Shown in pieces: positions 18,995 to 63,658 of a stretch of DNA of 64,000 bases. The notes beneath the pieces are model-generated. The model worked only from the letters and a program-made list of their open reading frames with translations. It ran no database searches and was not told the DNA's origin. Every line of letters starts with the position of its first letter. The first letter of the stretch is position 1. Source of the DNA: Candidatus Oxydemutatoraceae bacterium (GTDB lineage: Bacteria > Pseudomonadota > Gammaproteobacteria > Poriferisulfidales > Oxydemutatoraceae); assembly GCA_965219575.1 (NCBI GenBank), contig OZ244779.1, positions 2,220,769 to 2,284,768 on the forward strand, read 5' to 3'. Made by a program: the position numbers and the translations under genes.

Positions 18995-19343
18995 GGCAGA
19001 CCATTCCCCTCCTGTGTAGGGGGGATAGGCGAAGCCTGACGGGGTGGTCGCGAAGGGTTGGCACAAATATAATGCCGGTACATTCCCCTCCTGTGGAGGG
19101 GTGGCAGGCGCAGCCTGACGGGGTGGTCGCATCGTGGGACTGTTGAAAAAGTGCGGCATCGTACGAATCCAATCACTTGCGCCATTTGGTTTTGGTTTCC
19201 ATAATTTGGATGGATGAATGTATAAATCGTGTAGGCACAACGCGTTACGGGCGGACATGTTAGTCCGCCCCTACGGGTGGTTTGAAAATATTCACGGCGC
19301 AAGCGGTTACGATTGCGCCGTGACGATACTTTTTCAAAAGCCC
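18995..19343. repeat. Composite palindromic repeat array
   Basis: Two CCCCTCC..GGAGGGG modules, then a full TIR-bounded unit with a GTAG-REP hairpin. Confidence 0.9.
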
Positions 19344-19357
19344 TGAATAGTCTCTTT

Positions 19358-19867
19358 CTATGAGTCTTCTTTAAGAGCCTTTAATGCTTTATCGTAGTCA
19401 GGTTCATCGCTGATTTCACTCACTAATTCTGCATGTTTGACTACATCCGCTTTATCCAGAACCACGATTGCTCTCGCCGTGATTCCTGCGAGTGGTCCGT
19501 CTTCTATTAGAACGCCGTAATCTTTGGCAAAATTTCTGGAGCGCATCATAGAAAGCGGTATGACATTCTTTTGCGATTCGGCATCGCAAAAACGCGACAT
19601 CGCAAAAGGCAAGTCGGCAGATACGATTATGCAAATACTGTCTTCCAGTGCACCCACCGCTTCGTTAAATTTTTTGGTCGATGTAGCACAGACCGGCGTA
19701 TCCAAGCTAGGAACTATAGATATCAATTTTTTCTTGCCCTTGAAGTTGGAAAGAGAAATATCTTCTAAATCCTTATTCACCAGCAAAAAATCCGGTGCTT
19801 GCGTGCCGATAGCGGGTATCTTACCGTTGGTATGTATTTCGTTACCTTGTAGAGATATAGTAGCCAT
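19358..19867 (-). CDS. tpx: Thiol peroxidase (atypical 2-Cys peroxiredoxin)
   Basis: VPSLDTPVC, SADLPFA..RFC, GPLAG.TARA, EPDYD.AL. Confidence 0.95.
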   Translation of the reverse strand: MATISLQGNEIHTNGKIPAIGTQAPDFLLVNKDLEDISLSNFKGKKKLISIVPSLDTPVCATSTKKFNEAVGALEDSICIIVSADLPFAMSRFCDAESQKNVIPLSMMRSRNFAKDYGVLIEDGPLAGITARAIVVLDKADVVKHAELVSEISDEPDYDKALKALKEDS

Positions 19868-20006
19868 TATCAAGTCCTCCTTAATAGGTCATGAGAGGGT
19901 ATTATACCCGTTTTGTAGTCAAAAGGCTTGCATATTGAACGATAAGGTTTTAGAAGATTTACGCTAAAAAAAAGAATAGCTAAAAATGCTTGTAATTCAT
20001 TCATTT

Positions 20007-20615
20007 TCACGCATTAAGTCGTAAACTGCTCAATGTCCGAATTATGGATTGATATATCATAGCGCGGTGAAAAATTATTAGTGCGCCGAGCACACCTACG
20101 AAAGCACCGATTAAATGGACTTCCGAAACAACTTGTATATTCAGATATTCGGCTGTAGACGATCCCCTATCGGAAAAGTTTTCTACGAATATCTTTACGA
20201 TTAACAATAGCAGAATAATCCATGCAAATTTCTGTCGGTCTTTAATCCATGCTATTAAGATATAAGCAAAATATCCATGTAAGACACCCGACAATCCACC
20301 GTAATATACAACTTCGGGAATAAATAAATATAAGCCTGCGGAGATTGATAATGTTAGTACGAACAATAAGATTACCCACTTTGTGGGTGATAGATAACTA
20401 ATGCCTAGAAAGAATATAATAATCCACGCAATCAAGTTGATTACCAAATGCTTGTTGTTTAGATGCACAAAATGACCGCTGAATAAACGCCATAACTCTC
20501 CTTGTTCTAGTGCTTGTCTCTGGTATATAAAAAGTTCCTGATAATACGTGCAGATAAGCGCGGTGAGGATAACCAAGACGGCATAATAGCAGTTGTAAAG
20601 TTTAGAAAAAGACAT
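20007..20615 (-). CDS. rrtA: Rhombosortase (rhomboid protease for GlyGly-CTERM proteins)
   Basis: GELWRLFSGHFVHL...HL..N, YGGLSGVLHG (catalytic Ser), H..GA..G; adjacent to a GlyGly-CTERM gene. Confidence 0.88.
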   Translation of the reverse strand: MSFSKLYNCYYAVLVILTALICTYYQELFIYQRQALEQGELWRLFSGHFVHLNNKHLVINLIAWIIIFFLGISYLSPTKWVILLFVLTLSISAGLYLFIPEVVYYGGLSGVLHGYFAYILIAWIKDRQKFAWIILLLLIVKIFVENFSDRGSSTAEYLNIQVVSEVHLIGAFVGVLGALIIFHRAMIYQSIIRTLSSLRLNA

Positions 20616-20665
20616 CGAAGGTATAAAAACACATTATAAGTCATCTAGGGCTGCCTATTGAACTT

Positions 20666-20780
20666 GTAGGGGCGGACTTGCATGTCCGCCCGATAGGTTA
20701 ATCGGCAATTCAATGATGCCCCGTCTAACATGCCTGTTACAATGCAAATGCAGTAGGGCGGATATATAATCCGCCCTATA
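20666..20780. repeat. GTAG-REP hairpins
   Basis: GTAGGGGCGGACTTGCATGTCCGCCC and GTAGGGCGGATATATAATCCGCCCTA. Confidence 0.8.
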
Positions 20781-20799
20781 CAGCATTTTCAAGAAATTA

Positions 20800-23700
20800 C
20801 TATGAATTGTGTAATGTTCTACGACGACGACTAGCTGTCCCGATTAGTAGCAGTACCAATGCCCCTACCAGAAGCAGCGCATCGCTAGTGCCGATAGCAC
20901 CACCGCCACCTCCTCGGGTTCGCATACTAGTAAACATATAATCAGACCTTCTTGCAAAACCATACCAACCAGGAGAGGAAGTTCTTAGAACTTCTCCCGG
21001 AGAGGATAACATTGGGTTGTCTGATATGCCAATCGGGTCAATTATTATACCGTCCTGACCACTTGCATCGTAGATACTATCATCGGCGATAACCAGCATA
21101 ATACAATTATCTGCACTCGCCTCAAAGCCCATACCGTCATTCCCAGCAGGTTGATGATTATTTATATAGAATTGTAAATCCGTTGGGCATGCCTGATCAA
21201 TCTCTGTACGTTTTATTGCGTACCAAGTATTACCTGCCGCAGAATCTCCTACGGAGCGATCGTCTCTACTACCATATTTGGCGATATATAAGGTTGGACC
21301 TATGTCCATTATATCATCTGTCGTTATTGGGAATGTCACATAGACCACACCTCCGGTTATCTCAATTTGGTCATTATCGTCAGTTTCAAAGCCATACTCT
21401 ACATTAGAAACTCCGAATGTTGCAAATGATCGTATACCTGCTTCTTCACTTCCTGTAATTTCGGTAAGCCTAAGTACCCTTTCTCTGCTTTCACCGATAG
21501 CTATATTGGCTGCTGAATAATCAATCACACTTCTGCCACCTTCATTATCTGCATTTATAAGTCCTATATGGGTAAAAAATACCGGTAGTGGGGCTTGCTC
21601 ATTACCAGCATGAGCTCTTAAAACGTCTACATTTCGTGGTCCGCGTCCAGTATCAACGGGTAATGTTGTTTCAGTGAAGTTATCTCTAGTAAATAATGAA
21701 TCACTAGCATCCACTATATTATAGGTATTTGGCTCCGTAGGTGATACCAGATAAATTGCTCGAATGTTCGATATATTACCAATTTCGCTCCAGCCAGCAG
21801 TGATTGTGCCGGTAGTCGCTTCACTATTTACCATTATTTCTATAGCTTCTTGATGCTCTCCTGTAAAACTTAGACTGCTTGTTCTCATAGTCAATTGAGT
21901 AGCCGAAGTTTCACTAATAGTATAGCCAGAAACCAGCATTGGATTAGCTACTATCCTATTTCGCGGTATTCCATTTTCTATATTCGTATCGTAATCGGCT
22001 ATCACATAGTAACTTCTACCTGCGATTACAGAACTCACTATCTTTGATTCATCAATATCGTATAGCACTATCTGGCGTATCCTTGTGATTTCCGGATCAT
22101 CCGAACCAGCCACTCTTACATCTATATTGTTATTAGGACCTATTGCATAGTTGAAACTTGAAAGATTACGTCCACCTTCCATTAGTGATATAGTGGCACT
22201 GGTTGGAACCCATATATTAGCTTCTTGTCCTGCTTGTAACCAGTGAACTATGGTTTCTCCCGGCATCGGACTATTAGGAGAGGCTATAGTGTATTGATTA
22301 TTAACTATTTCATTTTGAAATATCACCCTTTGAGGATCATCACTTTCTAGTACTGTCAGTGTCAGATCCGTTTGACCTCCGCTATTATTCGGGTTAGAAG
22401 ATCGAGTTCTCACCCTTACCATAGGATTCGCTGTTTCATCGCCAAGAAACGCTGAAATAAAGACAGTTGCAGTAGTGGCTTCCGCAAATATATATGATGA
22501 TTGTCCCGAGAAGTTTATTTCCGGCAATACACTCAAGTTATAACCAAAGTAACCTGATTCTGTGGTTATTTCTGTAGATGTTGTGGATACTTGCAGTATT
22601 TCGTCTACGACGGTTACCCAAATATATTCTTGATTAGAGCGAGGTGATTCGTTAGCAAAACTAAACACCCTATTATCTTGACAAAACTCATCTATTTTGA
22701 CTTTGTTCAAATTATATTCTAAAGCTTCATCTAATACCATCTCACATTCACCTTTAGAAGGCCCATATCTGAATATTTGAGTGTCATCATTGGTATTTAT
22801 GCCAAAATATTCATCCGAACTAATCCTTTCAAATGTCTGCTTGCCGGAAAAATCAGGGTCTACAAAAGTAAACTCTCCTTCTCCGATCAGGCTACGTATT
22901 ACCGTCTCCCGACTGAAATGTCCATCTCTTCGTGAAGGGGTAAATGCTCTGTCGGCTCCCCCGGTTGTCTCCGGATTCAGAGTAGCAACGGCTACATTAA
23001 ATGGCGAACTGTCGACTATATCCGGCACACCATCTTGATCCATATCCCTTCTTAGTTCCGCCATACATGTTGCCTCATTCCTTACACCGTCAGACGTAGT
23101 ATAAACAGCCGTAATGTCTCGATCTGATGTAATCTCTCCATCTGGATCATTATCTCCGAATATATCTACGGAAAAGTTTCGAGATATACTGGGGTTTTCT
23201 ATCTCCAAGCCGCCTATCGTCAGTGTACCCTCAAAGTCATTCTCGTCTAATTCAAAGTATAGCGTTCGCTGACCTATGTTCGGATAGAACGATGCACAGC
23301 TCAAAGACGACAGCGTTCTTTGAACTGAGGCAAAAAATGGATCATTCATACCTAAGTCTCGCAGTTGCCCTGGGACGATATTTAGCGTATAGCTCCTTAT
23401 ATCACTAACGCTTCGATCTCCAAGATCAACTGTATAGACAACCCTCACTTGCGTTGTGCCTGTACCTGTTAGTGGTGTCACGCTGGTTGGAGTTGTTATG
23501 GCATTTATACCCATTACATTAATATTGTAAGACGCTCTGTTAACTAGATTTGGAACAGGTTCATCGGACTCAACATCAAATGTTATAGTAAAAGAAGCTG
23601 CCTCCATATCATCTCTTGTGTCCCTTACATTGCTGATTTCTATCTCAGCACCAATTGCATCAGGTATCACTAATGCATCTCTCAGTTCGGTTTGGTAATC

Positions 23701-25224
23701 TTCTACCACTCTAAAGGTTTCACCAAAGACGGCATTACGCCTAAATTCTATGGACCGTCTTTCTCCACCTCTCTTAAATGGTGAATTTAATTCATTCGTA
23801 TCAGGTATATCTTCAAATGCAAATGTCAGTTGAGTCGATGTCGTGATTGCCACTTGAGTTGATGCCGTGATAGTAATAGGTATTGTAGGTAGCGGATCAT
23901 CGTCGTCTTCTTGCACTGGCACACATAATCCATTCTCTTCGGTTACACATAGATAATCATTAGCATTGCCAGCTGGTGGAACTCTAATCGGAATACGAAA
24001 AGATATAGTATGCTCATTCCTACTCCTACTAGACACAACGTTAGTGGCTGTAGGTGCTCCCGTATCGTGAAACAGCGATGCTACAAAATTACCGGGAGCC
24101 AATGTTTCACCTTCTGCGTCTCTAATCACACTTGATATGTTTGTATTCTCGCTTATTGTAATCGTAGTTTGGGTGGTAATTCTTAAAACATCAAATGGGT
24201 TTTGTCCTGGTACATTATTTTTTTTGCCATCCACCGCTTGAGTAAATTCAACATTAGCATAACGGCTTCCTGATGTATGAATCACATTGTCTATTATACT
24301 ATCATCGTTTACATCAAGGCTAAAATGGCCTTTTTGTAGTTCAGTAAGAATAGGTTTAGAAAATTTAAGCCGCACTCCTTTTCCATCCCCATATCTCGTA
24401 TAATCTTCAACCCAAGTTTTACCATCCAGTCTGAAGCCTTGATAATCATTATTCGCCAATGCTAGTGCTGTTCTAATATCTGCGGTTCTAGCACCAACCG
24501 GAAAATCACGAAATTCTGATGATGAAATAACAAACACCAACCCTGCATCATTATCTTTATTATCTTTTCCTGTTACTACTGGCTCTGGTGGAATCATACA
24601 GCTTAACGTTATGAGGTCCTGCCACCTATTAGTTATTTGGCTAAATCCACTGGCTGGAGCGGATGAAACACCACCAGTGATTTCATTGGCATTCGCCAAC
24701 TCTAAAATAAGTTCATCTGGAGGACCACCATTATCGAAAAAGGTGGCATAGTTATCAAAGCCCTCTGTTGTTTGCCCTGTAATAAGGTCACCACGGGTGA
24801 CACGGCATTGGGCTTCTGAATTAGGTGTTCCAGAATTGTATTGTCTTTGGACAACATTCAAAAACAAAGGTGGCGTATCTAAATTACTACCTAATGCAGA
24901 ATTATTGAATTGCAAATTAAAACGCGCAGTATTTAAATAGCGAACACTATCACCTGTTTTTTTGAATTGTATTGTAAACTGAAATCTATTGCCTTCGTCC
25001 GTAAGGGCTATGGAATTAGGCTCGGCTATGGAATTAGGCTTGAATCGCATAAGAAGTAATCCAGCCTCTGCTGGCTGGCATGCGGTAAAACCTGAACCCC
25101 CACATGAAACACCGTCTGTTTCCGTAAAACGGCTTTGAACATAACTTACTGTTTGAGCTTGAGTATTCAAACCATATAGCATCATGAATACAAATACTAT
25201 TATAGTAAAACTTTTTTTCATCAT
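20800..25224 (-). CDS. Large secreted surface protein: cohesin-like N-domain, TSP3-like Ca motif, choice-of-anchor-U-like domain, GlyGly-CTERM anchor
   Basis: AAGGAG RBS then MMKKSF signal peptide; DMDQDGVPDIVD; CIMLVIADDSIYDASGQDGIIIDP; C-terminus GGGGGAIG + hydrophobic helix + RRRR. Confidence 0.85.
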   Translation of the reverse strand: MMKKSFTIIVFVFMMLYGLNTQAQTVSYVQSRFTETDGVSCGGSGFTACQPAEAGLLLMRFKPNSIAEPNSIALTDEGNRFQFTIQFKKTGDSVRYLNTARFNLQFNNSALGSNLDTPPLFLNVVQRQYNSGTPNSEAQCRVTRGDLITGQTTEGFDNYATFFDNGGPPDELILELANANEITGGVSSAPASGFSQITNRWQDLITLSCMIPPEPVVTGKDNKDNDAGLVFVISSSEFRDFPVGARTADIRTALALANNDYQGFRLDGKTWVEDYTRYGDGKGVRLKFSKPILTELQKGHFSLDVNDDSIIDNVIHTSGSRYANVEFTQAVDGKKNNVPGQNPFDVLRITTQTTITISENTNISSVIRDAEGETLAPGNFVASLFHDTGAPTATNVVSSRSRNEHTISFRIPIRVPPAGNANDYLCVTEENGLCVPVQEDDDDPLPTIPITITASTQVAITTSTQLTFAFEDIPDTNELNSPFKRGGERRSIEFRRNAVFGETFRVVEDYQTELRDALVIPDAIGAEIEISNVRDTRDDMEAASFTITFDVESDEPVPNLVNRASYNINVMGINAITTPTSVTPLTGTGTTQVRVVYTVDLGDRSVSDIRSYTLNIVPGQLRDLGMNDPFFASVQRTLSSLSCASFYPNIGQRTLYFELDENDFEGTLTIGGLEIENPSISRNFSVDIFGDNDPDGEITSDRDITAVYTTSDGVRNEATCMAELRRDMDQDGVPDIVDSSPFNVAVATLNPETTGGADRAFTPSRRDGHFSRETVIRSLIGEGEFTFVDPDFSGKQTFERISSDEYFGINTNDDTQIFRYGPSKGECEMVLDEALEYNLNKVKIDEFCQDNRVFSFANESPRSNQEYIWVTVVDEILQVSTTSTEITTESGYFGYNLSVLPEINFSGQSSYIFAEATTATVFISAFLGDETANPMVRVRTRSSNPNNSGGQTDLTLTVLESDDPQRVIFQNEIVNNQYTIASPNSPMPGETIVHWLQAGQEANIWVPTSATISLMEGGRNLSSFNYAIGPNNNIDVRVAGSDDPEITRIRQIVLYDIDESKIVSSVIAGRSYYVIADYDTNIENGIPRNRIVANPMLVSGYTISETSATQLTMRTSSLSFTGEHQEAIEIMVNSEATTGTITAGWSEIGNISNIRAIYLVSPTEPNTYNIVDASDSLFTRDNFTETTLPVDTGRGPRNVDVLRAHAGNEQAPLPVFFTHIGLINADNEGGRSVIDYSAANIAIGESRERVLRLTEITGSEEAGIRSFATFGVSNVEYGFETDDNDQIEITGGVVYVTFPITTDDIMDIGPTLYIAKYGSRDDRSVGDSAAGNTWYAIKRTEIDQACPTDLQFYINNHQPAGNDGMGFEASADNCIMLVIADDSIYDASGQDGIIIDPIGISDNPMLSSPGEVLRTSSPGWYGFARRSDYMFTSMRTRGGGGGAIGTSDALLLVGALVLLLIGTASRRRRTLHNS

Positions 25225-25287
25225 TACTCCTTGATTATTTGAAATTGATAGCATTATTCATAAAAAAACACAACAATTGTTTCCTAC

Positions 25288-26157
25288 TTACCTTAATATA
25301 GCAGTAGGTCTCTGACCTGAATTAGGCTGTATTTTAGAGAAAAATTCTGTGGCACCTTCTACCAAGCCATTTAAATTAGTATCACCACGACTATACCCCG
25401 GCTGATTGGGGAAAGGTTGAACTCCGTCAAAATAGTCTGCCGTGCTAACTAGACCGCCCAAACCGCTGGCGGCATCGCCAGACCGCATCACATGAATTGT
25501 CTCGCCACTAATAGTTAACTCTTTAGTTCCACCATCGAAAGTTCTGTCTCCTCTATCACTGAAGTCATATACATACTTGCCATCATTTTCTGATAGCATC
25601 TCATCTGAAATGATGTCTATATGATTTCTATGACGAATCGCCAAATATAATTGATCATCACCGATTAGATCATCAAAGCTAGCTTGATCAAAGACAACAT
25701 CAGGGCAATTACCCGTACCTGTGACAGCATCATCAGTATTGTCGTCGCCACTCACTGTTGAAGCAGTACAATTCCCTGTATATGCTTCTGCATCCACAAC
25801 GCGGCCGTTTTGTAACAGAAATGCAGGCTTACGGGCAATAACTGTTGTAGCATTATTAGCATCTCCGCTTGTTGCAGTCCGTAACTCAACCAACACCCAA
25901 TCTATCACTCCAGTTGGAATTTGCGACAGAGGATTCGCAGGAACACGAGTGCATAGCCTTGATCTATCTGCCGATGCCCCTTCATTTACACTACTAGTGT
26001 GGTAATTGCCATCGCAATATACATCTTGTAGTGGTATTGTAGAAGAGAAGCGAGCTGGAACATTCATTAGAACTTGAGCATTGCTCATGCTTGGTAGCAT
26101 TAAAACTACAACCAATAAGAAATATTGTTTAATAATTAACCTGATTCTATTTTTCAT
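25288..26157 (-). CDS. Secreted protein with a Bacteroidota-type 'DWVLVELR/HRNH' domain and a dockerin-like C-terminus
   Basis: Signal peptide; VIDWVLVELR, KPAFLLQNGRVVD, LYLAIRHRNH, YDFS, MRSGDA..G.V...DY, GYSRGDTNLNGLV. Confidence 0.75.
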   Translation of the reverse strand: MKNRIRLIIKQYFLLVVVLMLPSMSNAQVLMNVPARFSSTIPLQDVYCDGNYHTSSVNEGASADRSRLCTRVPANPLSQIPTGVIDWVLVELRTATSGDANNATTVIARKPAFLLQNGRVVDAEAYTGNCTASTVSGDDNTDDAVTGTGNCPDVVFDQASFDDLIGDDQLYLAIRHRNHIDIISDEMLSENDGKYVYDFSDRGDRTFDGGTKELTISGETIHVMRSGDAASGLGGLVSTADYFDGVQPFPNQPGYSRGDTNLNGLVEGATEFFSKIQPNSGQRPTAILR

Positions 26158-26396
26158 TTTATACCTCTATATATGCTTTTAGATTAACATTATTATAACT
26201 ATGTAACCTTTTTCATATCGTTATTATATCCCTATTCATGCAATAATCAATATATAAAAATGGCTTTTTTATTACTATCAACGGCAATAATACCACTATG
26301 CTTCGGCACTGTCAATAAAAACACCATTTGTTACGGCAGGGCAAATGGTATCACGCTTATGCAAAATCTCGGCATAGTTTATACCTCGCATATCTC

Positions 26397-26807
26397 TTAT
26401 AACTCGGGAATGTCTGCATCCTGGATTGTTTCTCCGCCGGCATTCAACCATGCATTCAATCCGCCGTTGAGATAGCAGACATTATCAAAGCCCATTTGCT
26501 TGAGCCGCCATGCCGCCAATGCCGAGCGAGGTCCCTTTGCACAATATAGAACCAAGCGTTTGTTTTGGTCAAAGGCTTGGTTATAGTACGGGCTGTCGGG
26601 GTCTGCCATAAACTCAAGCATGCCTCTTGATGCACCCACTGCATTTTTTATCATTCCCGTACTTGTCCACTCGTTCGAATCGCGCACATCAATGAATTGT
26701 GCATCACCCTCTGCAACGATTTTTTTTGCATCGTCTATTTCCAACGCCACAACATTGTTCATAGCTTCTTCCAAAAAATCTTTGACGCTTTTTTGCAGTG
26801 TAGGCAT
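26397..26807 (-). CDS. Single-domain rhodanese-like protein
   Basis: FIDVRD..EW..G.I..A, YCAKGPRS, L.GGLNAW. Confidence 0.9.
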   Translation of the reverse strand: MPTLQKSVKDFLEEAMNNVVALEIDDAKKIVAEGDAQFIDVRDSNEWTSTGMIKNAVGASRGMLEFMADPDSPYYNQAFDQNKRLVLYCAKGPRSALAAWRLKQMGFDNVCYLNGGLNAWLNAGGETIQDADIPEL

Positions 26808-26889
26808 TTAACTATTCCTTAAAATTGGTAATTTAACTTAGGGTGTAAGTATATCATTTTTGAGGATGTTGTGTACGGTTGGTTTGCGT

Positions 26890-27060
26890 GAGTTGAATGG
26901 ATGAATATATTAATTGTGCGGACGTGTAAGGTTATTGAAAAAGTATTTTATGAAATTGTACACCAGTTAATTCATGGAAACCAAAACCATATGGCGCAAG
27001 CGGTTGAGTTTATGCAAACATGATACATGTTCGGGCGGACATGCAAGTCCGCCCCTACAA
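26890..27060. repeat. Degenerate composite repeat
   Basis: ATGGAAACCAAAACCATATGGCGCAAGCGGTT and GGGCGGAC..GTCCGCCCCTAC. Confidence 0.85.
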
Positions 27061-27080
27061 GGGAAGGAATGGTGGTGGTT

Positions 27081-28553
27081 CTATTCTAGGGTGACGGCGA
27101 TGACTTCGTCCAGGGTGGTCTCGCCTTTGAGGGCGTATTCGCAACCGATGATGCGGAGGTCTTTGTTGTTTTCATAGACATGGCGTTTCATTTCTATCTC
27201 GCTTGCGCCGTCGTGCACCATTTGTTTGAGCATATCGTCTATGGTGACCAAATCGAACAATCCGAAGCGACCGGTGTATCCGGTATGGTTGCATGCTTCG
27301 CAACCTTTAGGTCTGTAGACGGTTTTGCCTTCAAATAGTTCCGGGTTCAATCCCGAGAAACGAAGTTCTTCGGCATCGGGTGTATAGGGTTCTTTGCAAT
27401 GCGGGCACAGGCGGCGGACTAGGCGTTGTGCAAGTATGCCTTGCAGGGTGGCGGTGAGTAGAAACGGTTCCACACCCATATCACCCAAGCGGGTGACTGC
27501 GCCGATGGCGGTGTTGGTGTGTAGCGTCGACAACACAAGGTGTCCGGTCAGGCTTGCTTGGGTTGCGATGGTTGCGGTTTCGCTGTCTCTGATTTCCCCG
27601 ATTAGCACGACATCCGGGTCTTGTCTAAGAATTGCCCGCAGGCCGCGAGCGAAAGTCATATCGGCTTTGGTGTTGACTTGGGTCTGGCTAATTCCCTCAA
27701 AGTTGTATTCAATGGGGTCTTCTATGGTCATGATGTTGCGCTGGTGGCGATCGACTTCGGCGAGGGCTGCGTATAGGGTTGTGGTTTTCCCGGAACCCGT
27801 AGGTCCGGTGACCAGAACGATTCCGTGCGGTCGGTTGATTAAACTCTTGAAATAGGCTTTGAGGTCTTTCTCCATGCCGAGTTCGTCCAAGCCGATATGC
27901 TCGCTTTGTTTGTCCAATACACGCAAGACCACCCGTTCACCGTAGCTGGACGGCAATGTAGATACTCGCAGGTCGACATTACGCCCACCCAAGCGCACGG
28001 TGATGCGTCCGTCTTGTGGCAGGCGTTTTTCGGCAATGTCCAGACGCGCCAGCACTTTGATGCGCGAGACCAACAACGGCGCAAGTTTGGCCGATGAGGT
28101 CAGTATGGTTCGCAACACGCCGTTCAAGCGAAAGCGGATATGGAGTTCTCGCTCGTAGGGTTCTATATGTATATCGGAGGCTTTCTCGCGGATCGCCTCG
28201 AAGAAAATCGCATTGAGCATTTTGATTACCGGGGCATCGTCTTCGGTACTCAATAGGTCTTCGGGTTCTTCAAACGCTGCGGCAACTTCGTCCATGCCCA
28301 TCACGCTCTCCTGCACATCGTCCATAATGGACAGGCTACCGGATTGATTGGCATAGTTTTTTTGTAATTGTTGGTCAAACTCGCCGGTTTCTAAAATTCG
28401 TATAGAAAATTCGCGTTTGTATAGTCGGCGTGCTTCTTGTAGTGCTTGCGGTTGGGTATCGGCTCTGCAATAGAGTACGATTTCTTGGTCGCTCGTCGGA
28501 CCGACGAATATGCCGTGTCGTTGGGCAAATGAGAAAGGTAGTCGTGCGTCCAT
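27081..28553 (-). CDS. gspE: Type II secretion ATPase
   Basis: ASDIHIEP, LDIAEKRLPQDGR, GPTGSGKTTT, LRQDPDV, CPHC..GCEAC Zn motif, N-terminal LPFSFA. Confidence 0.95.
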   Translation of the reverse strand: MDARLPFSFAQRHGIFVGPTSDQEIVLYCRADTQPQALQEARRLYKREFSIRILETGEFDQQLQKNYANQSGSLSIMDDVQESVMGMDEVAAAFEEPEDLLSTEDDAPVIKMLNAIFFEAIREKASDIHIEPYERELHIRFRLNGVLRTILTSSAKLAPLLVSRIKVLARLDIAEKRLPQDGRITVRLGGRNVDLRVSTLPSSYGERVVLRVLDKQSEHIGLDELGMEKDLKAYFKSLINRPHGIVLVTGPTGSGKTTTLYAALAEVDRHQRNIMTIEDPIEYNFEGISQTQVNTKADMTFARGLRAILRQDPDVVLIGEIRDSETATIATQASLTGHLVLSTLHTNTAIGAVTRLGDMGVEPFLLTATLQGILAQRLVRRLCPHCKEPYTPDAEELRFSGLNPELFEGKTVYRPKGCEACNHTGYTGRFGLFDLVTIDDMLKQMVHDGASEIEMKRHVYENNKDLRIIGCEYALKGETTLDEVIAVTLE

Positions 28554-29510: not shown

Positions 29511-30464
29511 TTATCCGAGCCGTTTAATCTCCTCAGCGGATAAACCCGTCACTTCGGAAATTGCCAAAACCTTATAGCCCTTTTGCAACATATTCAAGGC
29601 GATATTTCGAGCTTTTTTAACCTCACCTTTTTCAATGCCTTGTTCAATGCCCTGTTCAATGCCTTCCTCTATCAGTCCTTCCCTTTCCAAGTTGTATTCC
29701 AGCTTGTATCTGTCGTGGGCTATAGAATCCCACAGTTCTATCTCCTCTTCCGATACTTTCTCTAAATGCTCTAATGCCATCTTTATCTCTCCGTCTTGTG
29801 ATAAATGCGCTACCTGCTCGGGTGTCAAGTCCTTTGCGTGTTTCATAATATAGCACCACCTATCGGCCATATCAACTAGCTCTAAGTGGCTCTTGTTAAA
29901 TTTGTTTAGTTCCACTATCATTATCGTTAAATCCATCTTGAGTTTCTTATTCAGATGCTTAATCGATTTGATTTCTAGTTGGTCTATATGTTCGTCTGTG
30001 TCGCCAAATACCGTGAAGTCGGTGAATGCCAGCAAGTAGGTCGGACTAATCTTGCTATACTTTTGTCCACGGTTTACGACATGGGTATGCAACTGTGCCC
30101 AATAGAGCAACATTCTACCCAGAAAGTGTTTCTCACGATAGACCTGCATTTCTATGCTAACATTCTCGCCACTATTCAATTTGACATTGAGGTCTAGTAC
30201 GACTTGCTTGCCGTCCGGCGTGTTCGGTGGGATGACGCTGTCTTCCAGATGCAACTTATCGTCCGATTGACTCTGTGGTTGCTTTGCAGACTCGGACTCT
30301 GTGTTGTTTTTTCCAGGGTTCAGTATCACCATATCCGAGGCATTATCGGAGATCGGCAGGAAGCTCTTGATCAGCGAGAGCAGTACTTGTTTATTAGTTG
30401 AGAAGTATCTTTTGAAGACGCGGTCTTTAGTCAGTGGTAAATATTTTCTCTGTTCTTTGTTCAT
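29511..30464 (-). CDS. Rpn family PD-(D/E)XK nuclease / putative transposase
   Basis: D.VFKRYF, LDL.VKL..G..V.IEMQ, W.Y, C-terminal EEGIEQGIEQGIEKG..IA.NML..G...I..VTGLS.EEI. Confidence 0.9.
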   Translation of the reverse strand: MNKEQRKYLPLTKDRVFKRYFSTNKQVLLSLIKSFLPISDNASDMVILNPGKNNTESESAKQPQSQSDDKLHLEDSVIPPNTPDGKQVVLDLNVKLNSGENVSIEMQVYREKHFLGRMLLYWAQLHTHVVNRGQKYSKISPTYLLAFTDFTVFGDTDEHIDQLEIKSIKHLNKKLKMDLTIMIVELNKFNKSHLELVDMADRWCYIMKHAKDLTPEQVAHLSQDGEIKMALEHLEKVSEEEIELWDSIAHDRYKLEYNLEREGLIEEGIEQGIEQGIEKGEVKKARNIALNMLQKGYKVLAISEVTGLSAEEIKRLG

Positions 30465-31272: not shown

Positions 31273-32040
31273 CTAGTTGAATATGTTGGTCTTGTTGAGT
31301 AGGAAGAGGGTGCCTTGGTAATCCATTATGACGCCGTCGGAGTTGATTTGGTGCACCGAGAGGTCGTCGCTGAGTCTTTGCCCTTCGCGTAGTGCGACAC
31401 CGTTAATGATGACTTTGCGGGCTTGCGGGCGTAGATCCGAATGGATATGTGCCGATAGTTGAATATTGGGGATACGTTGCCTTAACCCACTCGGTAGATT
31501 TTCGTAATCGACGATACCTACCGGCAGGGGTTCCCACTCGGGTGCGTCAACTGGATTTTGATATAGATTCGGCGATACCGGTGGTGTATAGGTCGGCGAT
31601 TGCGCGGCAAAATTATTATTCGGAGTTTGCGGTTGAGGTGGATAGTAAGCGGGTGTCGGGTTATTGGGAGCAACATAAGGTACGGCGGGCGGCACGGTGT
31701 TGGACGGCACTACAGCGGTGGGGACAACACTCGTTTGCGGTGGTGGCGAGGTTTGCATTACTTGCGGTTGCGATACCGCACCGTCAATCACCGGGGTCGT
31801 AATCACAACCGATTGTATCTTCTGGTCGGTAGGACTTTGTTCGGTTAGTGGTTTATAAAACCAGAATGCCGCAAAAATTGCCACCGAAACGATACCGGCG
31901 ATCGATAACATGGTTCCGAAACGCTGCCGGCGGTTATCCAGATTTTCAAAACTCTGCACCTGTATAGACGAAATTTCCGGCACCGAACCTAAGTTGCGCT
32001 TGTTTTCTACTTTTTTGAGTGCCGATAAAATGAACGACAT
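31273..32040 (-). CDS. gspB: Type II secretion protein B (ExeB/GspB)
   Basis: MSFILSALKK.E, TM, Pro-rich linker, P..QLSAHIHS...R.VIING...EG. Confidence 0.85.
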   Translation of the reverse strand: MSFILSALKKVENKRNLGSVPEISSIQVQSFENLDNRRQRFGTMLSIAGIVSVAIFAAFWFYKPLTEQSPTDQKIQSVVITTPVIDGAVSQPQVMQTSPPPQTSVVPTAVVPSNTVPPAVPYVAPNNPTPAYYPPQPQTPNNNFAAQSPTYTPPVSPNLYQNPVDAPEWEPLPVGIVDYENLPSGLRQRIPNIQLSAHIHSDLRPQARKVIINGVALREGQRLSDDLSVHQINSDGVIMDYQGTLFLLNKTNIFN

Positions 32041-33926: not shown

Positions 33927-36047
33927 TTAAGTACGCCCGTCGGAAGTGCGAGAACGGGAACTCGGGCTAGGACTAGACCTAGGCGATGATGTCGGGCGTT
34001 TTCTAACGGTCGGGGGTTGGCGTTCCGTTTCCAGCCGCGGCAACAGCATCGTTTCAGTCTCGTCATCTAATAGCGTATCGGTTCTTTTTAGATGTTCCAG
34101 TTGTTCCAAGCGTAGTTGCACATAACGATTGGATGCTTCTTGATATGCGTCTTCGGTAGTCCGAAAAATAGTCGGGCGAATGAAAACCATCAGATTGGTT
34201 TTGTCGTTATTGCTATCGCGTCCTTTGAATAGATTACCTAAAACCGGCAGGTTGCTTAATAACGGAACTCGATTTTTAGAATCTTGTCGTCGCTCTTCAA
34301 CCAAACCACCCAAAACCACGATTTTACCGTCGTCCACAACAACATGGGTTTGGATTTCTCTATCGGAAGTGACCGGACGGGGAGTATCAGCACCGCTAGT
34401 TACCCGTTTTACTTTCTGTTTTATTTTAAGACTTACTGCATCACCTTTGGTTATTTGCGGTGTTACCTCTAGCTCGGTATCTACATCCAAGCGTTCTATG
34501 TTTCGCTCAACGGTGCCCTCTACGCCAACAGCACCCGCATCAATGCTCCTTTCTTCACCGACTTTGATTAACGCTTTCTCGTTGTTTAGCGTCATTACCG
34601 ACGGGGTGGCAAGAATATTCGTATTTCGATCCGTGTTAAGTGCTTGTATAAACAAGCCTAAGTTGAGATCGCCCGACCGACCTCCGGCAAAAACATTAAA
34701 AGACGGGGTATCGGCAGTAAGGTTAAAAGCGGCAAACAAACCGCGCAAGCTGGTTACCGGATTTCTGTTTCTTGGACTAGTTCCTCCTCCCGGTAAGTCG
34801 GTACCATCTTTGCTACCACTCAGTCGAGTGCTTATGTTTGCCGAACGATTTAAGGATAGCTCGGCGATAATCGCTTCTATCAGAACCTGTGGGCGCGGCA
34901 CATCCAGTCGTTCAACGACATCGGCAATCGCCTGCACCAGATTAGCTGCCCCACTGACAATTAATACATTGGTATCGGAATCGGATTGCACGGTATAACC
35001 GCTACCGCTTAAAGTCTCGCCTTTTTTCTCGTCCTTTTTGTCGTCGTCCTTTTTGTCGTCATCCTTTTTATCGTCGTCTTTTTTGTCGTCGTCCTTTTTG
35101 TCGTCGGCTTTCGGTGCTTGCCGATCATCCATAATGTCGCCTTCGCTGGCTAATTCCAAAAATTGCTTGGTCAATAAGCCTTTGAGTATGCTTTTCATGT
35201 CGTCGGCGTTGGCGTAGCTCAGCGGTATCACGCGCACCACGCCGCGTTGATCCGAGGTCGTCGGACGCGTATCCAATTCGGCAATTAGCGCGCGCAACGG
35301 CAGGCGATCTTGCGGTTCGCCGGTCAAGATGATGCGGTCGTTCTTTTGGTCGGTGACGATTTTAGCCAACTGTTTGAGGGCGGGGTTGCGCGCTTTTTCT
35401 ATGATCCTTGCTATGTCGTCGGCTTTCAAATGTTTGAGTTCGATAATCTCATAGTCGTCTAGGGACTTTCTGTCAACCGCCTTGATGATTTCTTTGATAC
35501 GCTCTATGTTGGTCTTGAGTTCGGTGACGATCAGCGAGTTAAGACGTTTGAAAGGAACGACTTGCGCCTCACCGGTCATCAACGGCCGGATAATCGGAAT
35601 AACGGCACCCACATCTAAATGTCTGACGGGGATAATTTCGGTTTGCAGGGAACTTGCCACATCCAGCGGTGAATAGCGCGGTGCGAGGTTGGCAGGCACG
35701 ATGCTCGTCAAACCGTTTGCCACGTCCACCGCTCTGAAACCTTGCATCGCCAATACCGTCAGCATAATATCGTAAAGCGCGTCGTCCGGTACTTCGGAAT
35801 TGGCTATAATCGTCGTTTTACCTCTGACCCTGGCATCCATTAAAAAGTTACGCCCGGTTAATTCGGACATACTTTCGATGAACTGCCTGATCTCGACATC
35901 TCTGAAGTTGATTGTTGCCGCCGTCGATAAAGACGGGACTACCAACATCAGTCCCAGCATGATAGCGCATAGCTTTTTAGAGAATAGATTGCCGTTTATT
36001 TCGGCAGAGCGAATAGATACTTTTTCAGTGGCTTTGCGTTGCCACAT
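33927..36047 (-). CDS. gspD: Type II secretion secretin
   Basis: INFRDVEIRQFI, RPQVLIEAIIAE, NILATPS..TLNNE.A, VPLLS.LP.LG.LF; likely start 36047 (the ORF-track start overlaps gspC). Confidence 0.93.
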   Translation of the reverse strand: MWQRKATEKVSIRSAEINGNLFSKKLCAIMLGLMLVVPSLSTAATINFRDVEIRQFIESMSELTGRNFLMDARVRGKTTIIANSEVPDDALYDIMLTVLAMQGFRAVDVANGLTSIVPANLAPRYSPLDVASSLQTEIIPVRHLDVGAVIPIIRPLMTGEAQVVPFKRLNSLIVTELKTNIERIKEIIKAVDRKSLDDYEIIELKHLKADDIARIIEKARNPALKQLAKIVTDQKNDRIILTGEPQDRLPLRALIAELDTRPTTSDQRGVVRVIPLSYANADDMKSILKGLLTKQFLELASEGDIMDDRQAPKADDKKDDDKKDDDKKDDDKKDDDKKDEKKGETLSGSGYTVQSDSDTNVLIVSGAANLVQAIADVVERLDVPRPQVLIEAIIAELSLNRSANISTRLSGSKDGTDLPGGGTSPRNRNPVTSLRGLFAAFNLTADTPSFNVFAGGRSGDLNLGLFIQALNTDRNTNILATPSVMTLNNEKALIKVGEERSIDAGAVGVEGTVERNIERLDVDTELEVTPQITKGDAVSLKIKQKVKRVTSGADTPRPVTSDREIQTHVVVDDGKIVVLGGLVEERRQDSKNRVPLLSNLPVLGNLFKGRDSNNDKTNLMVFIRPTIFRTTEDAYQEASNRYVQLRLEQLEHLKRTDTLLDDETETMLLPRLETERQPPTVRKRPTSSPRSSPSPSSRSRTSDGRT
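35031..35106 (-). repeat. In-frame 15-bp tandem repeat encoding (DDKKD)n within gspD
   Basis: ADDKKDDDKKDDDKKDDDKKDDDKKDEKK. Confidence 0.9.
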
Positions 36048-36057
36048 AGATAATTTA

Positions 36058-36966
36058 TTAATTGATTTTAACAACGGTACTCTCCAGTTTTCCCTCTCTG
36101 ATATACTGAATTCTAACTTCTTTTTCATTTATTATATTTCTGAGAGACGACGGGTTTTCCATAATATCGGTAATCCGCTGCTTGGCAATCCCCAACACGA
36201 TATCTCCCGGGTTCAGGTCGAGCTGGGTAAATAAATCGTATTCGGAACTCATTCCCGGTTCGATTTTAACGCCTTCACCGTAGCGTCCGGTATTAACTCT
36301 CTCAAATTTAACCATCTCCCCTATTTTAAGCGGATTTTCCTTGATGACCGCAATAACATTATCGTTGCGCCTTGCGGGCGGTGGAGCTTCTGTCGATGCC
36401 GATGCCGCCGCTTGTGCTTGCGGTGCCGGGTCGGTGAACAAATTATTTGCTTTCTTGATTGCTAATTTTTCCTCGGTCTCACCTCTTAACAATATAACAT
36501 GATCATTTCCCAACCGAGATAGGAATACACCCTCTTTGATCTCGTCACCGATTGCATAAATTTTAGGACCTCTGTTTTCGACATTAATCATTGCCGTACC
36601 GGTCTCACCAACACCGACAATACCGATTAACGTGGCCTGGATGCGGGCAATCTGAACCGGCTTGGGCTTGGGTGGTTGGCGTAACTTAAACCATTCCCAT
36701 GATGTTGAGGCATTGCCGGCTTGACCGCGGACTGCCAACTGCTTTCCGATATCGCCGCTCTGCTCCAAAGATATCGTATCGGGATAATAAATCTTCCAAA
36801 AAATATCCGATAATAAAAAAGTGCATACCGGCACCAAAATCCACGCAATAACACGACCCAGAACCTTACTAATGCTTGCTGCCGGCAAACTCAATCCCGA
36901 CGACGATATTACGAAACTACTCATAATCGCTCCCCTTGCAATAACCTTAGATGCAAGATAAACCAT
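36058..36966 (-). CDS. gspC: Type II secretion protein C
   Basis: TM, L.GIV..G..AMI, Y.IGDEI, D.VIL.R.G..E.L, PDZ-like tail; upstream of gspD. Confidence 0.85.
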   Translation of the reverse strand: MVYLASKVIARGAIMSSFVISSSGLSLPAASISKVLGRVIAWILVPVCTFLLSDIFWKIYYPDTISLEQSGDIGKQLAVRGQAGNASTSWEWFKLRQPPKPKPVQIARIQATLIGIVGVGETGTAMINVENRGPKIYAIGDEIKEGVFLSRLGNDHVILLRGETEEKLAIKKANNLFTDPAPQAQAAASASTEAPPPARRNDNVIAVIKENPLKIGEMVKFERVNTGRYGEGVKIEPGMSSEYDLFTQLDLNPGDIVLGIAKQRITDIMENPSSLRNIINEKEVRIQYIREGKLESTVVKIN

Positions 36967-43824: not shown

Positions 43825-43852
43825 CTCTAAGCCGTCTGTTATCAAAAAAAGG

Positions 43853-62820: not shown

Positions 62821-63028
62821 GGGGGGCTGTTGAAAAAGTACGGGCGTTGCTCAAACCCAATCGCTGTGCGCCATGAACATTTACCGCCGTAGGGGCGGAC
62901 TTGCATGTCCGCCCGTAACGCGTTATGCATGAACTATTTATACATTCATTCACGCGATTTATGGAAACCAAAACCATACGGCACAAGCGGTTGCAATTTT
63001 GCAAAAACAGTACTTTTTCAACAGCCCC
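62821..63028. mobile_element. Single ~205-bp MITE-like unit (cleanest copy of the family)
   Basis: GGGGCTGTTGAAAAAGTAC...GTACTTTTTCAACAGCCCC perfect TIR; sub-terminal IRs; central GTAG-REP. Confidence 0.75.
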
Positions 63029-63133: not shown

Positions 63134-63658
63134 ATGAAATACTTGAGACACTATCTAATCCATGCCGGTTTGTGTTTACTGCTCGTTTGCTCGGCGAATG
63201 TGACCTCTGCACAAGTTATAGCTAGCCTAGAAAAAGGATCAATCACTGATACCCCAACGACCCGTACAATAACTTTCAACATCAACTTAAGCGAGCAACT
63301 TAAGGTTAACGAAGCAGCCTTCGTTCAAATTCGACTTGACAATGTTCTTGAAGGTGAAATCGCTAGTGCAAGTGCTGAAAGTTATATGGTCACTGGCTGT
63401 GTACGTTTTTCGTTTAGCTTTCCCAGATACAATTTATGCATGGATGACGGTGAAAAAAATGTGACCCTACAATTAATATTGAATAATTCTTTTGATAGGC
63501 GTAAAACTATAACAGTTTCTCTCGAGACTTTTTCTCCTTTCGGCAATAGGCCGATTGCCGAAGGCGTCCGACGGGATCCTATCAACTCTGTTTTACGTTA
63601 CCCCGGCACGGCTATTTTCATCCGTAGCAAGGTTTTTCTGGAGGGTCCGCTCCAATAG
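63134..63658 (+). CDS. Secreted beta-rich protein ending in KVFLEGPLQ
   Basis: Signal peptide MKYLRHYLIHAGLCLLLVCSANVTSA; C-terminus IFIRSKVFLEGPLQ*. Confidence 0.75.
   Translation: MKYLRHYLIHAGLCLLLVCSANVTSAQVIASLEKGSITDTPTTRTITFNINLSEQLKVNEAAFVQIRLDNVLEGEIASASAESYMVTGCVRFSFSFPRYNLCMDDGEKNVTLQLILNNSFDRRKTITVSLETFSPFGNRPIAEGVRRDPINSVLRYPGTAIFIRSKVFLEGPLQ

Follow-up and report, generated by a model that had tools for sequence, protein, structure and literature searches.

The window (the 64,000-nt stretch of DNA analyzed here, from a genome of 2.37 Mb; all coordinates are positions within the window) probably encodes the core of a three-part surface-display system that is built on a split protein domain. 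Tagged client proteins, an adaptor, and a cell-anchored scaffold make up the three parts. The adaptor would be exported via its own signal peptide, and the C-terminal tail of a client would insert into the open sandwich of the adaptor, completing its fold noncovalently by strand complementation in trans. The dockerin of the adaptor would then bind the cohesin-like domain at the start of the next protein downstream, and this anchor, probably exported by the adjacent type II secretion system (T2SS), would be processed by the neighboring rhombosortase and kept on the cell surface. Binding of the tag to the adaptor is predicted by a complex model; we only infer dockerin-cohesin binding, its Ca dependence, the export route, the surface location, and the order of assembly. 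An initial annotation of the window had proposed this arrangement, and its interpretation was supported overall. These results suggest an undescribed way of plugging proteins onto the bacterial cell surface, and no description of the system was found in the literature searched (by motif, and for dockerin together with donor-strand or rhombosortase). The features are listed in Table 1.

Table 1. Features of the display locus and of the small client in the window
Feature	Position	Strand	Evidence or remark
Rhombosortase gene, directly downstream of the anchor	20007..20615	-	TIGR03902, 144.2 bits, cut-off 84
Anchor (scaffold) protein, 1484 aa, directly downstream of the adaptor	20800..25254	-	
GlyGly-CTERM-like tail of the anchor: GGGGGAIG, hydrophobic stretch, RRRR	20803..20919	-	Read by eye
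Cohesin-like domain of the anchor, residues ~64-279	24418..25065	-	AF2 model, fold searches
Adaptor gene, coding for 289 aa with a signal peptide, an Ig-like module that is incomplete, and a dockerin-like C-terminus	25288..26157	-	
Dockerin-like segment of the adaptor, two Ca-loop-like repeats, residues ~226-285	25303..25482	-	Weak profile matches
Ig-like module of the adaptor, first strand missing, residues 28-225; predicted tag groove	25483..26076	-	Alignment, complex model
Putative signal peptide of the adaptor, residues 1-27	26077..26157	-	Cleavage after SNA inferred from the A-x-A rule, by reading the sequence
Rhodanese-like gene, 136 aa, upstream of the adaptor	26397..26807	-	The same gene precedes the adaptor in several relatives (L002, L003, L005, L008)
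T2SS ATPase GspE	27081..28553	-	TIGR02533, 663.6 bits, cut-off 630.25
GspB match, weak	31273..32040		Beside GspD
T2SS secretin GspD	33927..36128	-	TIGR02517, 447.9 bits, cut-off 351.35
GspC match, weak	36058..36966		Beside GspD
Small client, 174 aa from ATG at 63134	63134..63658	+	Ends in the tag; one of 37
C-terminal strand tag AIFIRSKVFLEGPLQ	63611..63655	+	Conserved tails; complex model

The adaptor corresponds to a contiguous module without its first strand

The N-terminus of the adaptor reads MKNRIRLIIKQYFLLVVVLMLPSMSNA, which is signal-peptide-like, followed by QVLMNVPARFSSTIPLQDVY (read from the sequence), and the protein contains DWVLVELR, AFLLQNGRVVD, YLAIRHRNH, YDFS, SGDAASGLGGLVSTADY, and GDTNLNGLV. 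KVFLEG is absent from the whole 289-aa translation, which confirmed the annotated combination of a signal peptide and these motifs without that strand. A sequence search returned 45 homologues at E ≤ 0.001, and Pfam and NCBIfam scans (E ≤ 1) returned no family for the adaptor.

Contiguous homologues carry the same elements in one chain, which reads K[VI]FLEGP[YF]..M..IP..QPY..DWVLVELR..RHRNH..dockerin. Among 174 homologues with a DWVLVEL-like core, 90 have a [VA][FY]LEG[PA]-type strand upstream, at a distance of 41-68 residues (median, 50), showing that the contiguous module cited in the initial annotation is real; in 80 of these 90 the module lies at the C-terminal end. A further class (57/174) consists of stand-alone proteins of 250-400 aa with a hydrophobic N-terminus and without the strand. 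When aligned with the contiguous homologues, the mature adaptor begins at the M..IP..Y part, its first aligned residue being the one that immediately follows their K[IV]FLEGP strand, and the clients stop 2 residues past FLEGP, complementary to the adaptor start. The module is thus split at its first beta-strand, as had been claimed. In the unsplit form a single chain at the cargo terminus holds both the strand and the remainder, whereas here they are encoded by separate genes: the whole-genome search found two adaptor genes and no contiguous module. By alignment the fold lacks one strand, and the supply of that strand in trans is predicted by the complex model described below. Module matches in the protein library amounted to 12,524 representatives at E ≤ 0.001, homologous along the whole adaptor, and no model of the unsplit C-terminal module was found in Pfam or NCBIfam.

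The AF2 model of the adaptor on its own was confident even without the strand (pLDDT 77.9, pTM 0.80), which counts neither for nor against an incomplete fold and does not bear on strand-free stability. Its best structural matches were X-module-dockerin dyads, namely 3kcp_A (Z 7.4, rmsd 3.5, 136 residues aligned) and 5g5d_B (Z 6.9, rmsd 4.1, 139 of 156 aligned), with the row after these at Z 3.4; this likeness came from the wider structural aligner alone, and a Z below 8 can mean merely a common arrangement. Foldseek with the same model returned nothing at E ≤ 0.001. With the family profile, 15 PDB sequences were matched at E values from 0.0059 to 0.97 (cut-off E ≤ 1), all weakly and all on the dockerin-like segment; 13 were cellulosomal dockerin-bearing chains, and 2 were named serine protease. 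Two D-x-[DN]-x-[DN]G-like loops were seen by eye in this segment, and a precomputed PF00404 match was present on one adaptor homologue, Pfam being silent on the window adaptor itself.

A strand tag closes 37 open reading frames

The secreted protein at 63134-63658 had been described as ending exactly in the strand. Its ORF does close with IRSKVFLEGPLQ-stop, the longest frame opening with TTG at 62999, and Pfam/NCBIfam scans (E ≤ 1) gave just chance-level matches far under the cut-off. A six-frame scan of the whole genome with [VIL]F[LM][EQ]G[PA] yielded 42 matches, and 37 of them stand just before a stop, 36 at a distance of 2 residues and one at 6 residues. The DNA pattern VFLEG[PA]xx-stop occurred 33 times in the genome, and the reversed control pattern did not occur at all. 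C-terminal placement of the tag is therefore far more frequent than chance would give. The motif is not confined to one truncated protein, and the many clients and few adaptors that the annotation had foreseen were found (37 tagged ORFs and 2 adaptor genes).

Together, the 37 tagged ORFs comprise 104,343 aa, or 13.2% of genome bases, the largest being 16,068 aa. They are signal-peptide proteins that include proteases, cadherin-like, GLUG, and Calx-beta adhesins, and giants of 13,000-16,000 aa. In three proteins the strand motif lies near the N-terminus or internally, with >1,300 aa after it, so a free C-terminus is not universal.

The tag consensus, [IV]R[IL]RxK[VL]FLEG[PA]L[QR]-COOH, makes up the final 13-15 residues of the clients, and K32, F34, L35, E36, G37, and L39 (40-aa tail numbering) are invariant across 34 aligned tails. 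The exact ending KVFLEGPLQ is found in 32 of the 37 tails. Its coding DNA takes 29 different forms of 30 nt, each position being written with 2-5 synonymous codons, and all three stop codons occur. Since the peptide is constant while codons and stops vary, the sequences indicate that purifying selection is acting on the tag peptide and not on its DNA. A DNA repeat or mobile element that writes the tag was ruled out by the same variable codons and stops around a constant peptide.

The tag is predicted to dock in the adaptor

A complex of the adaptor with a 40-aa client tail was modeled, and the prediction gave an ipSAE of 0.89 (runs 0.90, 0.89, and 0.89), compared with 0.43 for the best of three controls, an unrelated one. 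Of 80 solved complexes, 58 pass the ipSAE mark used, as do 2 of 110 mismatched pairs. The runs shared ≥75% of their contacts, and the partner pLDDT was at least 54, values near 55 being due to the 24 of 40 tail residues that are unstructured. On the tail side only residues 25-40 form the interface, that is, the 16 tag residues, which matches the annotated expectation that the last 16 aa of the client would dock. On the adaptor side the interface comprises residues 29-33, 85-92, 114-120, 153-158, 170-179, 193-200, and 221-226, with the tail contacting strands 118-120, 195-199, and 221-226. The model may place the strand because the pair resembles the large contiguous family; the two halves of a split gene tend to pass such predictions. 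Among the 16 adaptors compared, those of one genus (g5) differ at several interface positions, and no clear or interpretable compensating pair was found between lineage-specific tags and adaptor interface residues.

The neighboring anchor carries a cohesin-like domain

The initial annotation had placed a cohesin-like domain in the neighboring protein, and the fold searches bore this out. The AF2 model of the anchor N-terminus was of low confidence (pLDDT 59.3, pTM 0.66), and with this model the best 20 rows of the fold search were all cohesins (Z 10.4-7.1, ~130-150 residues aligned), led by 4ums_A (Z 10.4, rmsd 3.1, 142 aligned). Foldseek likewise returned cohesins (E 7.6e-5, probability 1.00). 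Pfam and NCBIfam matches of the anchor (E ≤ 1) were at chance level, far under the cut-off.

This neighbor had further been described as rhombosortase-anchored. The rhombosortase gene scores well above its cut-off (Table 1); the anchor tail, which reads GGGGGAIGTSDALLLVGALVLLLIGTASRRRR, was recognized by eye, and the GlyGly-CTERM HMM of NCBIfam gave no match on the last 60 aa (E ≤ 0.1). Four regex matches to such tails were obtained in the genome, and two of them, including that of the anchor, look convincing. Because the GlyGly-CTERM-like tail adjoins its own rhombosortase gene, the anchor would be processed and held on the surface. T2SS genes lie upstream of the adaptor, as annotated, GspE being nearer than GspD. 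The genome contains three cohesin-like domains, proteins of 4,598 and 7,908 aa having them in addition to the anchor, and two tagged giants carry such domains, so clients could be daisy-chained.

RNA contigs of one metatranscriptome run (X1) cover the anchor at 20948-25101 and the adaptor at 25345-26213, which places both in an RNA library, short of proof of transcription. The flanking genes (19000-20947 and 26214-28505) had no contig in this run, and two of three RNA runs were blank, neither of which is evidence of absence.

Tag, adaptor, and cohesin-like gene co-occur across relatives

Of 18 other genomes of the family, 16 have the adaptor, and no adaptor was found in the 22 genomes from three sister families. 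Tag, adaptor, and cohesin-like partner were found together in six genera of one family and in none of the sister-family genomes, so the expected co-occurrence across genomes was observed. The strict tag pattern occurred in 2-33 copies in 10 genomes, each with an adaptor match, and in one copy in total among 24 genomes without the adaptor, where the reversed control likewise gave one in total. Variant tags (RVFLEGAVIP, KVFLEGPYEYR, KVYLGGAVR, and RVFLQGALQ) close the frame in 14 of 16 loci of four further genomes, and in a fifth (G008) the ORF that precedes the adaptor finishes in KVFLGGMVR.

In one genus (g1), the gene directly downstream of the adaptor match begins with a cohesin-like domain in 15 of 15 cases, and other genera show the same order, except for one of two copies in G015. 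The second adaptor of the window genome is directly upstream of a 4,598-aa protein that begins with a cohesin-like domain and closes with the tag. Gene adjacency, 15/15 in genus g1, is the evidence from which we infer dockerin-cohesin binding. A relative, G005, has the module in fused form: 23 matches were detected, all inside open frames of 687-17,496 aa, and four of five loci read encode proteins that finish with the complete module, strand included. Despite the fused dockerin-bearing module on 23 proteins, G005 gave no match to the cohesin-like profile, so the cohesin-like domain is no more than a candidate partner of the adaptor dockerin.

Alternative roles of the tag and the adaptor

The adaptor could bind the tag and nonetheless be a periplasmic chaperone, pilot, or secretion escort rather than a surface anchor, handing clients to the T2SS or another exporter, while its dockerin-like end has some other partner. 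The T2SS genes are adjacent, G005 has no cohesin-like match, and the stoichiometry of the display model is awkward, with two adaptor genes and three cohesin-like domains for 37 clients; two adaptors for that many clients would be more in keeping with a factor that is recycled than with an anchor needed in stoichiometric amounts. We nevertheless regard such a role as unlikely, given that the module is a permanent C-terminal part of thousands of homologues, an ill fit to recycling, that the adaptor adjoins a cohesin-like gene in nearly every copy, and that it resembles the X-module-dockerin dyad, which is a scaffold-docking unit.

It is a shade less likely again that the tag is a sorting or secretion signal recognized by different machinery (a secretion system, for instance, or an outer-membrane receptor) and resembles the missing strand through common descent, with no complementation in trans. 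Short conserved C-terminal signals are common among bacterial surface proteins, and the evidence for tag-adaptor binding is the complex model. A signal of this kind leaves unexplained why adaptors without exactly that strand co-occur with the tag in six genera and why a fused form replaces both tag and adaptor in G005. The tag also differs from sortase-type signals in having no hydrophobic helix and no basic tail, and no hydrophobic stretch follows it as in the tripartite signals of that type (LPXTG, PEP-CTERM).

That the tags are functionless stubs left by deletion of the C-terminal module, and the adaptors unrelated stand-alone survivors, is very unlikely: a few tagged ORFs are short and resemble gene remnants (28, 54, 93, 100, and 120 aa), but the strand stands at the very end in 37 of 37, its peptide is invariant over varying codons with no neutral drift seen, and the arrangement is kept with lineage-specific endings across six genera.

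Under the display model, the tag may represent a new sorting principle that works by fold completion and not by an enzyme, a broader reading to which we give an even chance. The 15-residue C-terminal strand would be a universal plug for a shared dockerin-bearing adaptor, and one cohesin-bearing, rhombosortase-anchored scaffold would display or daisy-chain more than one-tenth of the coding capacity, including 16,000-aa adhesins. The system would have arisen by fission of a widespread C-terminal module and would be interchangeable with the fused form within one family. If true, the locus encodes the machinery for a tag that marks 13% of the genome, and the very large, unnamed C-terminal module family gains a testable function.

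Relation to known systems

In the type II X-module-dockerin dyads of clostridial cellulosomes (3KCP, 5G5D), an Ig-like module is packed on a dockerin, which docks to the cohesin of a cell-anchored scaffold, an arrangement that the adaptor and its neighbor may share. Sequence likeness to these dyads is marginal, with E 0.0059 at best and in the dockerin part alone. In contrast to the clostridial systems, the window host has T2SS and rhombosortase genes, and its anchor ends in a GlyGly-CTERM-like tail, not in SLH or a sortase signal. The clients are adhesin-like proteins and a protease rather than cellulases, and they have no dockerin of their own, just one strand of the X-like module. If true, the display model carries cohesin-dockerin assemblies beyond cellulases, to adhesins, and into a bacterium that has a T2SS and a rhombosortase.

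Retention of T2SS substrates at the surface by GlyGly-CTERM and rhombosortase is described for VesB of Vibrio cholerae in two reports (PMC6219818, PMC3237569). The window is alike in having a rhombosortase gene beside that of a protein whose tail, by eye, is Gly-rich, hydrophobic, and basic, with T2SS genes near. It differs in that the scaffold alone is proposed to be processed here, and many clients would be surface-bound indirectly through the adaptor.

In chaperone-usher pili (donor-strand complementation and exchange) and in type V pili, an Ig-like fold is completed by a strand of another polypeptide. Here, unlike in pili, a single shared adaptor holds the incomplete fold and many unrelated proteins donate the strand as a short tail, and the proposed outcome is docking to a scaffold, not polymerization of like subunits. 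No pilin was among the listed structural matches of the adaptor from Foldseek and the wider aligner, which does not imply exclusion.

Engineered split-domain tags such as SpyTag/SpyCatcher also use a short peptide that completes a split beta-sandwich partner, whereas the window system is natural and presumably noncovalent. Other genera and contiguous forms have Arg, Thr, or Gly in place of the tag lysine, so no Lys/Asp pair is invariant; a lysine isopeptide is unlikely for this reason, and covalent docking of that kind was rejected. If true, the system is a natural counterpart of these engineered tags, in which a short encodable peptide docks any cargo on a small adaptor and then on a cell-anchored cohesin.

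A strand-less adaptor apparently derived from a contiguous module

The adaptor, whose ORF starts with a signal-peptide-like segment, contains every motif listed for it in the initial annotation and lacks KVFLEG. No Pfam or NCBIfam family matched it at E ≤ 1, and a homologue search recovered 45 proteins at E ≤ 0.001. Among 28 aligned homologues, 24 were stand-alone proteins (266-396 aa, as predicted) with a signal-peptide-like N-terminus and no strand. The other four were longer and carried K[IV]FLEGP[FY], TVFMEGPY or KVFLQGAL just ahead of the point at which the mature adaptor begins, which bore out the claim that its first strand is missing. Cysteines C48, C69 and C151 (mature C21, C42 and C124) were invariant among the stand-alone adaptors, and the four contiguous forms had no cysteine at the first two positions; these residues may form disulfides that stabilize the incomplete fold ahead of client binding.

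Searching 1.84 billion representatives with a profile, we matched 12,524 proteins at E ≤ 0.001 (5,183 at 1e-10 and 289 at 1e-30); a DWVLVEL-like core was present in 174 of the 184 proteins examined. The strand motif lay 41-68 residues (median 50) upstream of the core in 90 of the 174, of which 80 had the module at their C-terminal end. In a further 57, all stand-alone and 250-400 aa long, the N-terminus was hydrophobic and the strand absent; the other 27 were fragments or longer proteins in which the strand was not matched by regular expression. These strand counts indicate that the module is usually contiguous and that stand-alone adaptors are a rare derived form. Only two adaptor genes were present in the host genome, where a search found no contiguous module; the second encodes 296 aa, and the gene immediately following it encodes a 4,598-aa tagged protein.

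The adaptor alone was modelled with a pLDDT of 77.9 and a pTM of 0.80. Foldseek returned no match to this model at E ≤ 0.001, and a wider structural aligner placed it closest to the X-module-dockerin (XDoc) dyads of clostridial cellulosomes (3kcp_A, Z 7.4; 5g5d_B, Z 6.9; next match, Z 3.4). The adaptor-family profile gave weak matches to dockerins in the PDB over the last ~55 residues, and for the Ig-like part no relative of known structure was found by sequence search.

Coordinates of the features discussed in the text
Feature	Location	Strand	Details
Adaptor ORF	window 25288..26157	-	289 aa
Anchor	window 20800..25254	-	1,484 aa
Rpn-family recombination-promoting nuclease or putative transposase	window 29511-30464	-	112 bits, cut-off 52
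Type III secretion SctD and SctC	window 42460-45610	-	150.6 bits, cut-off 86; 354.4 bits, cut-off 238
Client ORF	window, ending at 63658		ends in IRSKVFLEGPLQ-stop
Short tagged ORFs	host genome 100184-100270, 625694-625858, 40074-40355, 76410-76712, 1560553-1560915		28-120 aa, no signal peptide
Non-terminal (K/R)VFLEGAL, L071	host genome 1309204	+	LRR/fn3 protein
Non-terminal (K/R)VFLEGAL, L072	host genome 1800381	-	
Non-terminal (K/R)VFLEGAL, L073	host genome 1922565	-	
Hairpin-like element, examples	host genome 1597329, 511405		AACCGCCGATTGAGCCGGTAGGTCAATCGGCG-like
Cohesin-like domain fused to adaptor module, L010 / L019	G012:C1 about 652500-654100		649 aa
Cohesin-like domain downstream of adaptor	G009:C1:928229 onward		opens 19,552-aa frame
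Complete module behind signal peptide, L013	G005:C1:892000-896000		556 further residues

Predicted secreted proteins with a common C-terminal tag

The client in the window closes with the annotated tag. A six-frame scan of the host genome (one contig, 2,369,097 bases) found 42 strand motifs, of which 37 close an ORF; these 37 tagged ORFs against two adaptor genes agree with the expectation of many clients and few adaptors. The tagged ORFs span 28 to 16,068 aa and sum to 104,343 aa, or 13.2% of the genome, and 29 of the 32 with at least 150 aa have a hydrophobic run within the first 70 residues. Pfam searches of 16 clients identified Peptidase_S8 with P-domain, Cadherin-like, GLUG, Calx-beta, Big_2 and Big_9 domains, with no match in five.

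KVFLEGPLQ ended 32 of the 37 tagged ORFs and was encoded by 29 distinct 30-nt strings, with 2-5 synonymous codons per position and all three stop codons. Because one peptide is written by 29 DNA strings, selection acts on the tag peptide; a DNA repeat is ruled out, since the peptide is constant while codons and stop codons vary. Alignment of 34 tails showed the tag residues K, F, L, E, G and L to be invariant, with a strand-like alternation of hydrophobic and basic residues ahead of this core.

Five short tagged ORFs probably derive from larger clients, as remnants or as frameshifted ends. Three proteins carried the motif away from the end, followed each time by a Gly-rich linker: in a 1,370-aa FGE-sulfatase/HYR protein it comes straight after the signal peptide, and in two paralogues, one of them (L071) an LRR/fn3 protein, it occurs ~296 aa into the chain. 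The tag may thus also function N-terminally or internally. A hairpin-like element recurred 3' of the stop codon in many tagged genes and may be either a REP-like repeat or a terminator common to them.

Predicted docking of the tag and a putative surface anchor

A complex between adaptor residues 28-289 (28-row alignment) and a client tail of 40 aa (34-row alignment) was modelled. The ipSAE was 0.89 (runs 0.90, 0.89 and 0.89), against 0.43 for the best of three controls and 0.01 for the others; the score mark was reached by 58/80 solved complexes and 2/110 mismatched pairs, counts that are approximate since our own alignments were used. The runs shared at least 75% of contacts, with partner pLDDT of at least 54. 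The interface was limited to tail residues 25-40, the tag itself, which contacted adaptor residues 118-120, 153-158, 195-200 and 221-226 and the DWVLVEL and RHRNH stretches. The prediction supports binding of the tag to the adaptor, as had been proposed, and the placement of the strand may reflect likeness to the contiguous family.

The initial annotation gave the protein next to the adaptor a cohesin-like domain. The N-terminal 267 residues of the anchor, modelled using 12 neighbours encoded in other genomes, gave a modest model (pLDDT 59.3, pTM 0.66), whose top 20 structural matches were all cohesins (Z 10.4-7.1); Foldseek also returned cohesins (E 7.6e-5). At its C-terminus the anchor has a run of Gly followed by a hydrophobic stretch and RRRR. 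A genome regex scan found four such Gly/hydrophobic/basic tails, two of which, the anchor and one other, were convincing by eye. A rhombosortase gene lies directly after the anchor (144 bits, cut-off 84). The GlyGly-CTERM model did not match the anchor tail. The anchor and the adaptor are each covered by contigs from one metatranscriptome run.

Upstream of the adaptor are GspE, GspD and weak GspC and GspB matches, consistent with the annotated proximity of a T2SS, and a rhodanese-like gene whose position is kept in several relatives. A published study (PMC6219818) describes rhombosortase substrates as T2SS cargo kept on the surface. The Rpn-family gene is placed between the GspC/D/A/B genes and GspE, and SctD and SctC are also encoded in the window.

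The evidence is best explained by a split-domain docking system, which is considered probable. A tagged client would dock on the strand-accepting, XDoc-like adaptor, which would then dock on a cohesin-bearing scaffold anchored via rhombosortase; the chain could be lengthened by tagged giants that have a cohesin themselves. The predicted binding would equally be kept if the adaptor were an export escort, which we consider unlikely. Slightly less likely still is that the tag, without binding, is a signal for other machinery. The parts of the docking system are of known kinds (cohesin-dockerin pairing, strand complementation and rhombosortase); its new element would be a one-strand C-terminal tail used as a general docking tag, of which we found no description in the literature searched.

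Distribution among related genomes

Forty-one genomes from the host's order were compared. Of the 18 others in the host's family, 16 had the adaptor, against none of 22 from three sister families; these counts are not independent, since the genomes are kin. The cohesin-like profile matched 17 of the 18 and none of the 22, with no match in G005. All 15 adaptor matches in one genus (g1) lay directly upstream of a cohesin-like domain, as did those in other genera save one of two copies in G015. The host genome itself had three matches to this profile: one in the anchor, one opening the 4,598-aa tagged protein and one internal to a 7,908-aa tagged protein. The cohesin-bearing neighbour is itself giant in several relatives, and the 649-aa protein of G012, in which a cohesin-like N-domain precedes a strand-less module with dockerin, represents a natural cohesin-adaptor fusion.

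The strict VFLEG[PA]xx-stop DNA pattern occurred 33 times in the host genome, 13, 16, 13 and 9 times in the rest of its genus, 26 times in G006 and 6, 2, 26 and 14 times in genus g4. It occurred once across 24 genomes without an adaptor match, and a reversed control pattern once in all genomes together; the expected co-occurrence of tag and adaptor was thus seen in the family. In genomes with an adaptor and no strict match, variant tags (RVFLEGAVIP, KVFLEGPYEYR, KVYLGGAVR and RVFLQGALQ) terminated the reading frame at 14 of the 16 loci read, and in G008 the ORF preceding the adaptor ended in KVFLGGMVR.

All 23 module matches in G005 fell within open frames of 687-17,496 aa, and the full module including the strand ended a giant protein in four of five loci read. 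Because G005 carries the fused module and other members the split form, the two forms substitute for each other within one family. At locus L013 of G005 the complete module is followed by further residues, indicating that it is not always C-terminal.
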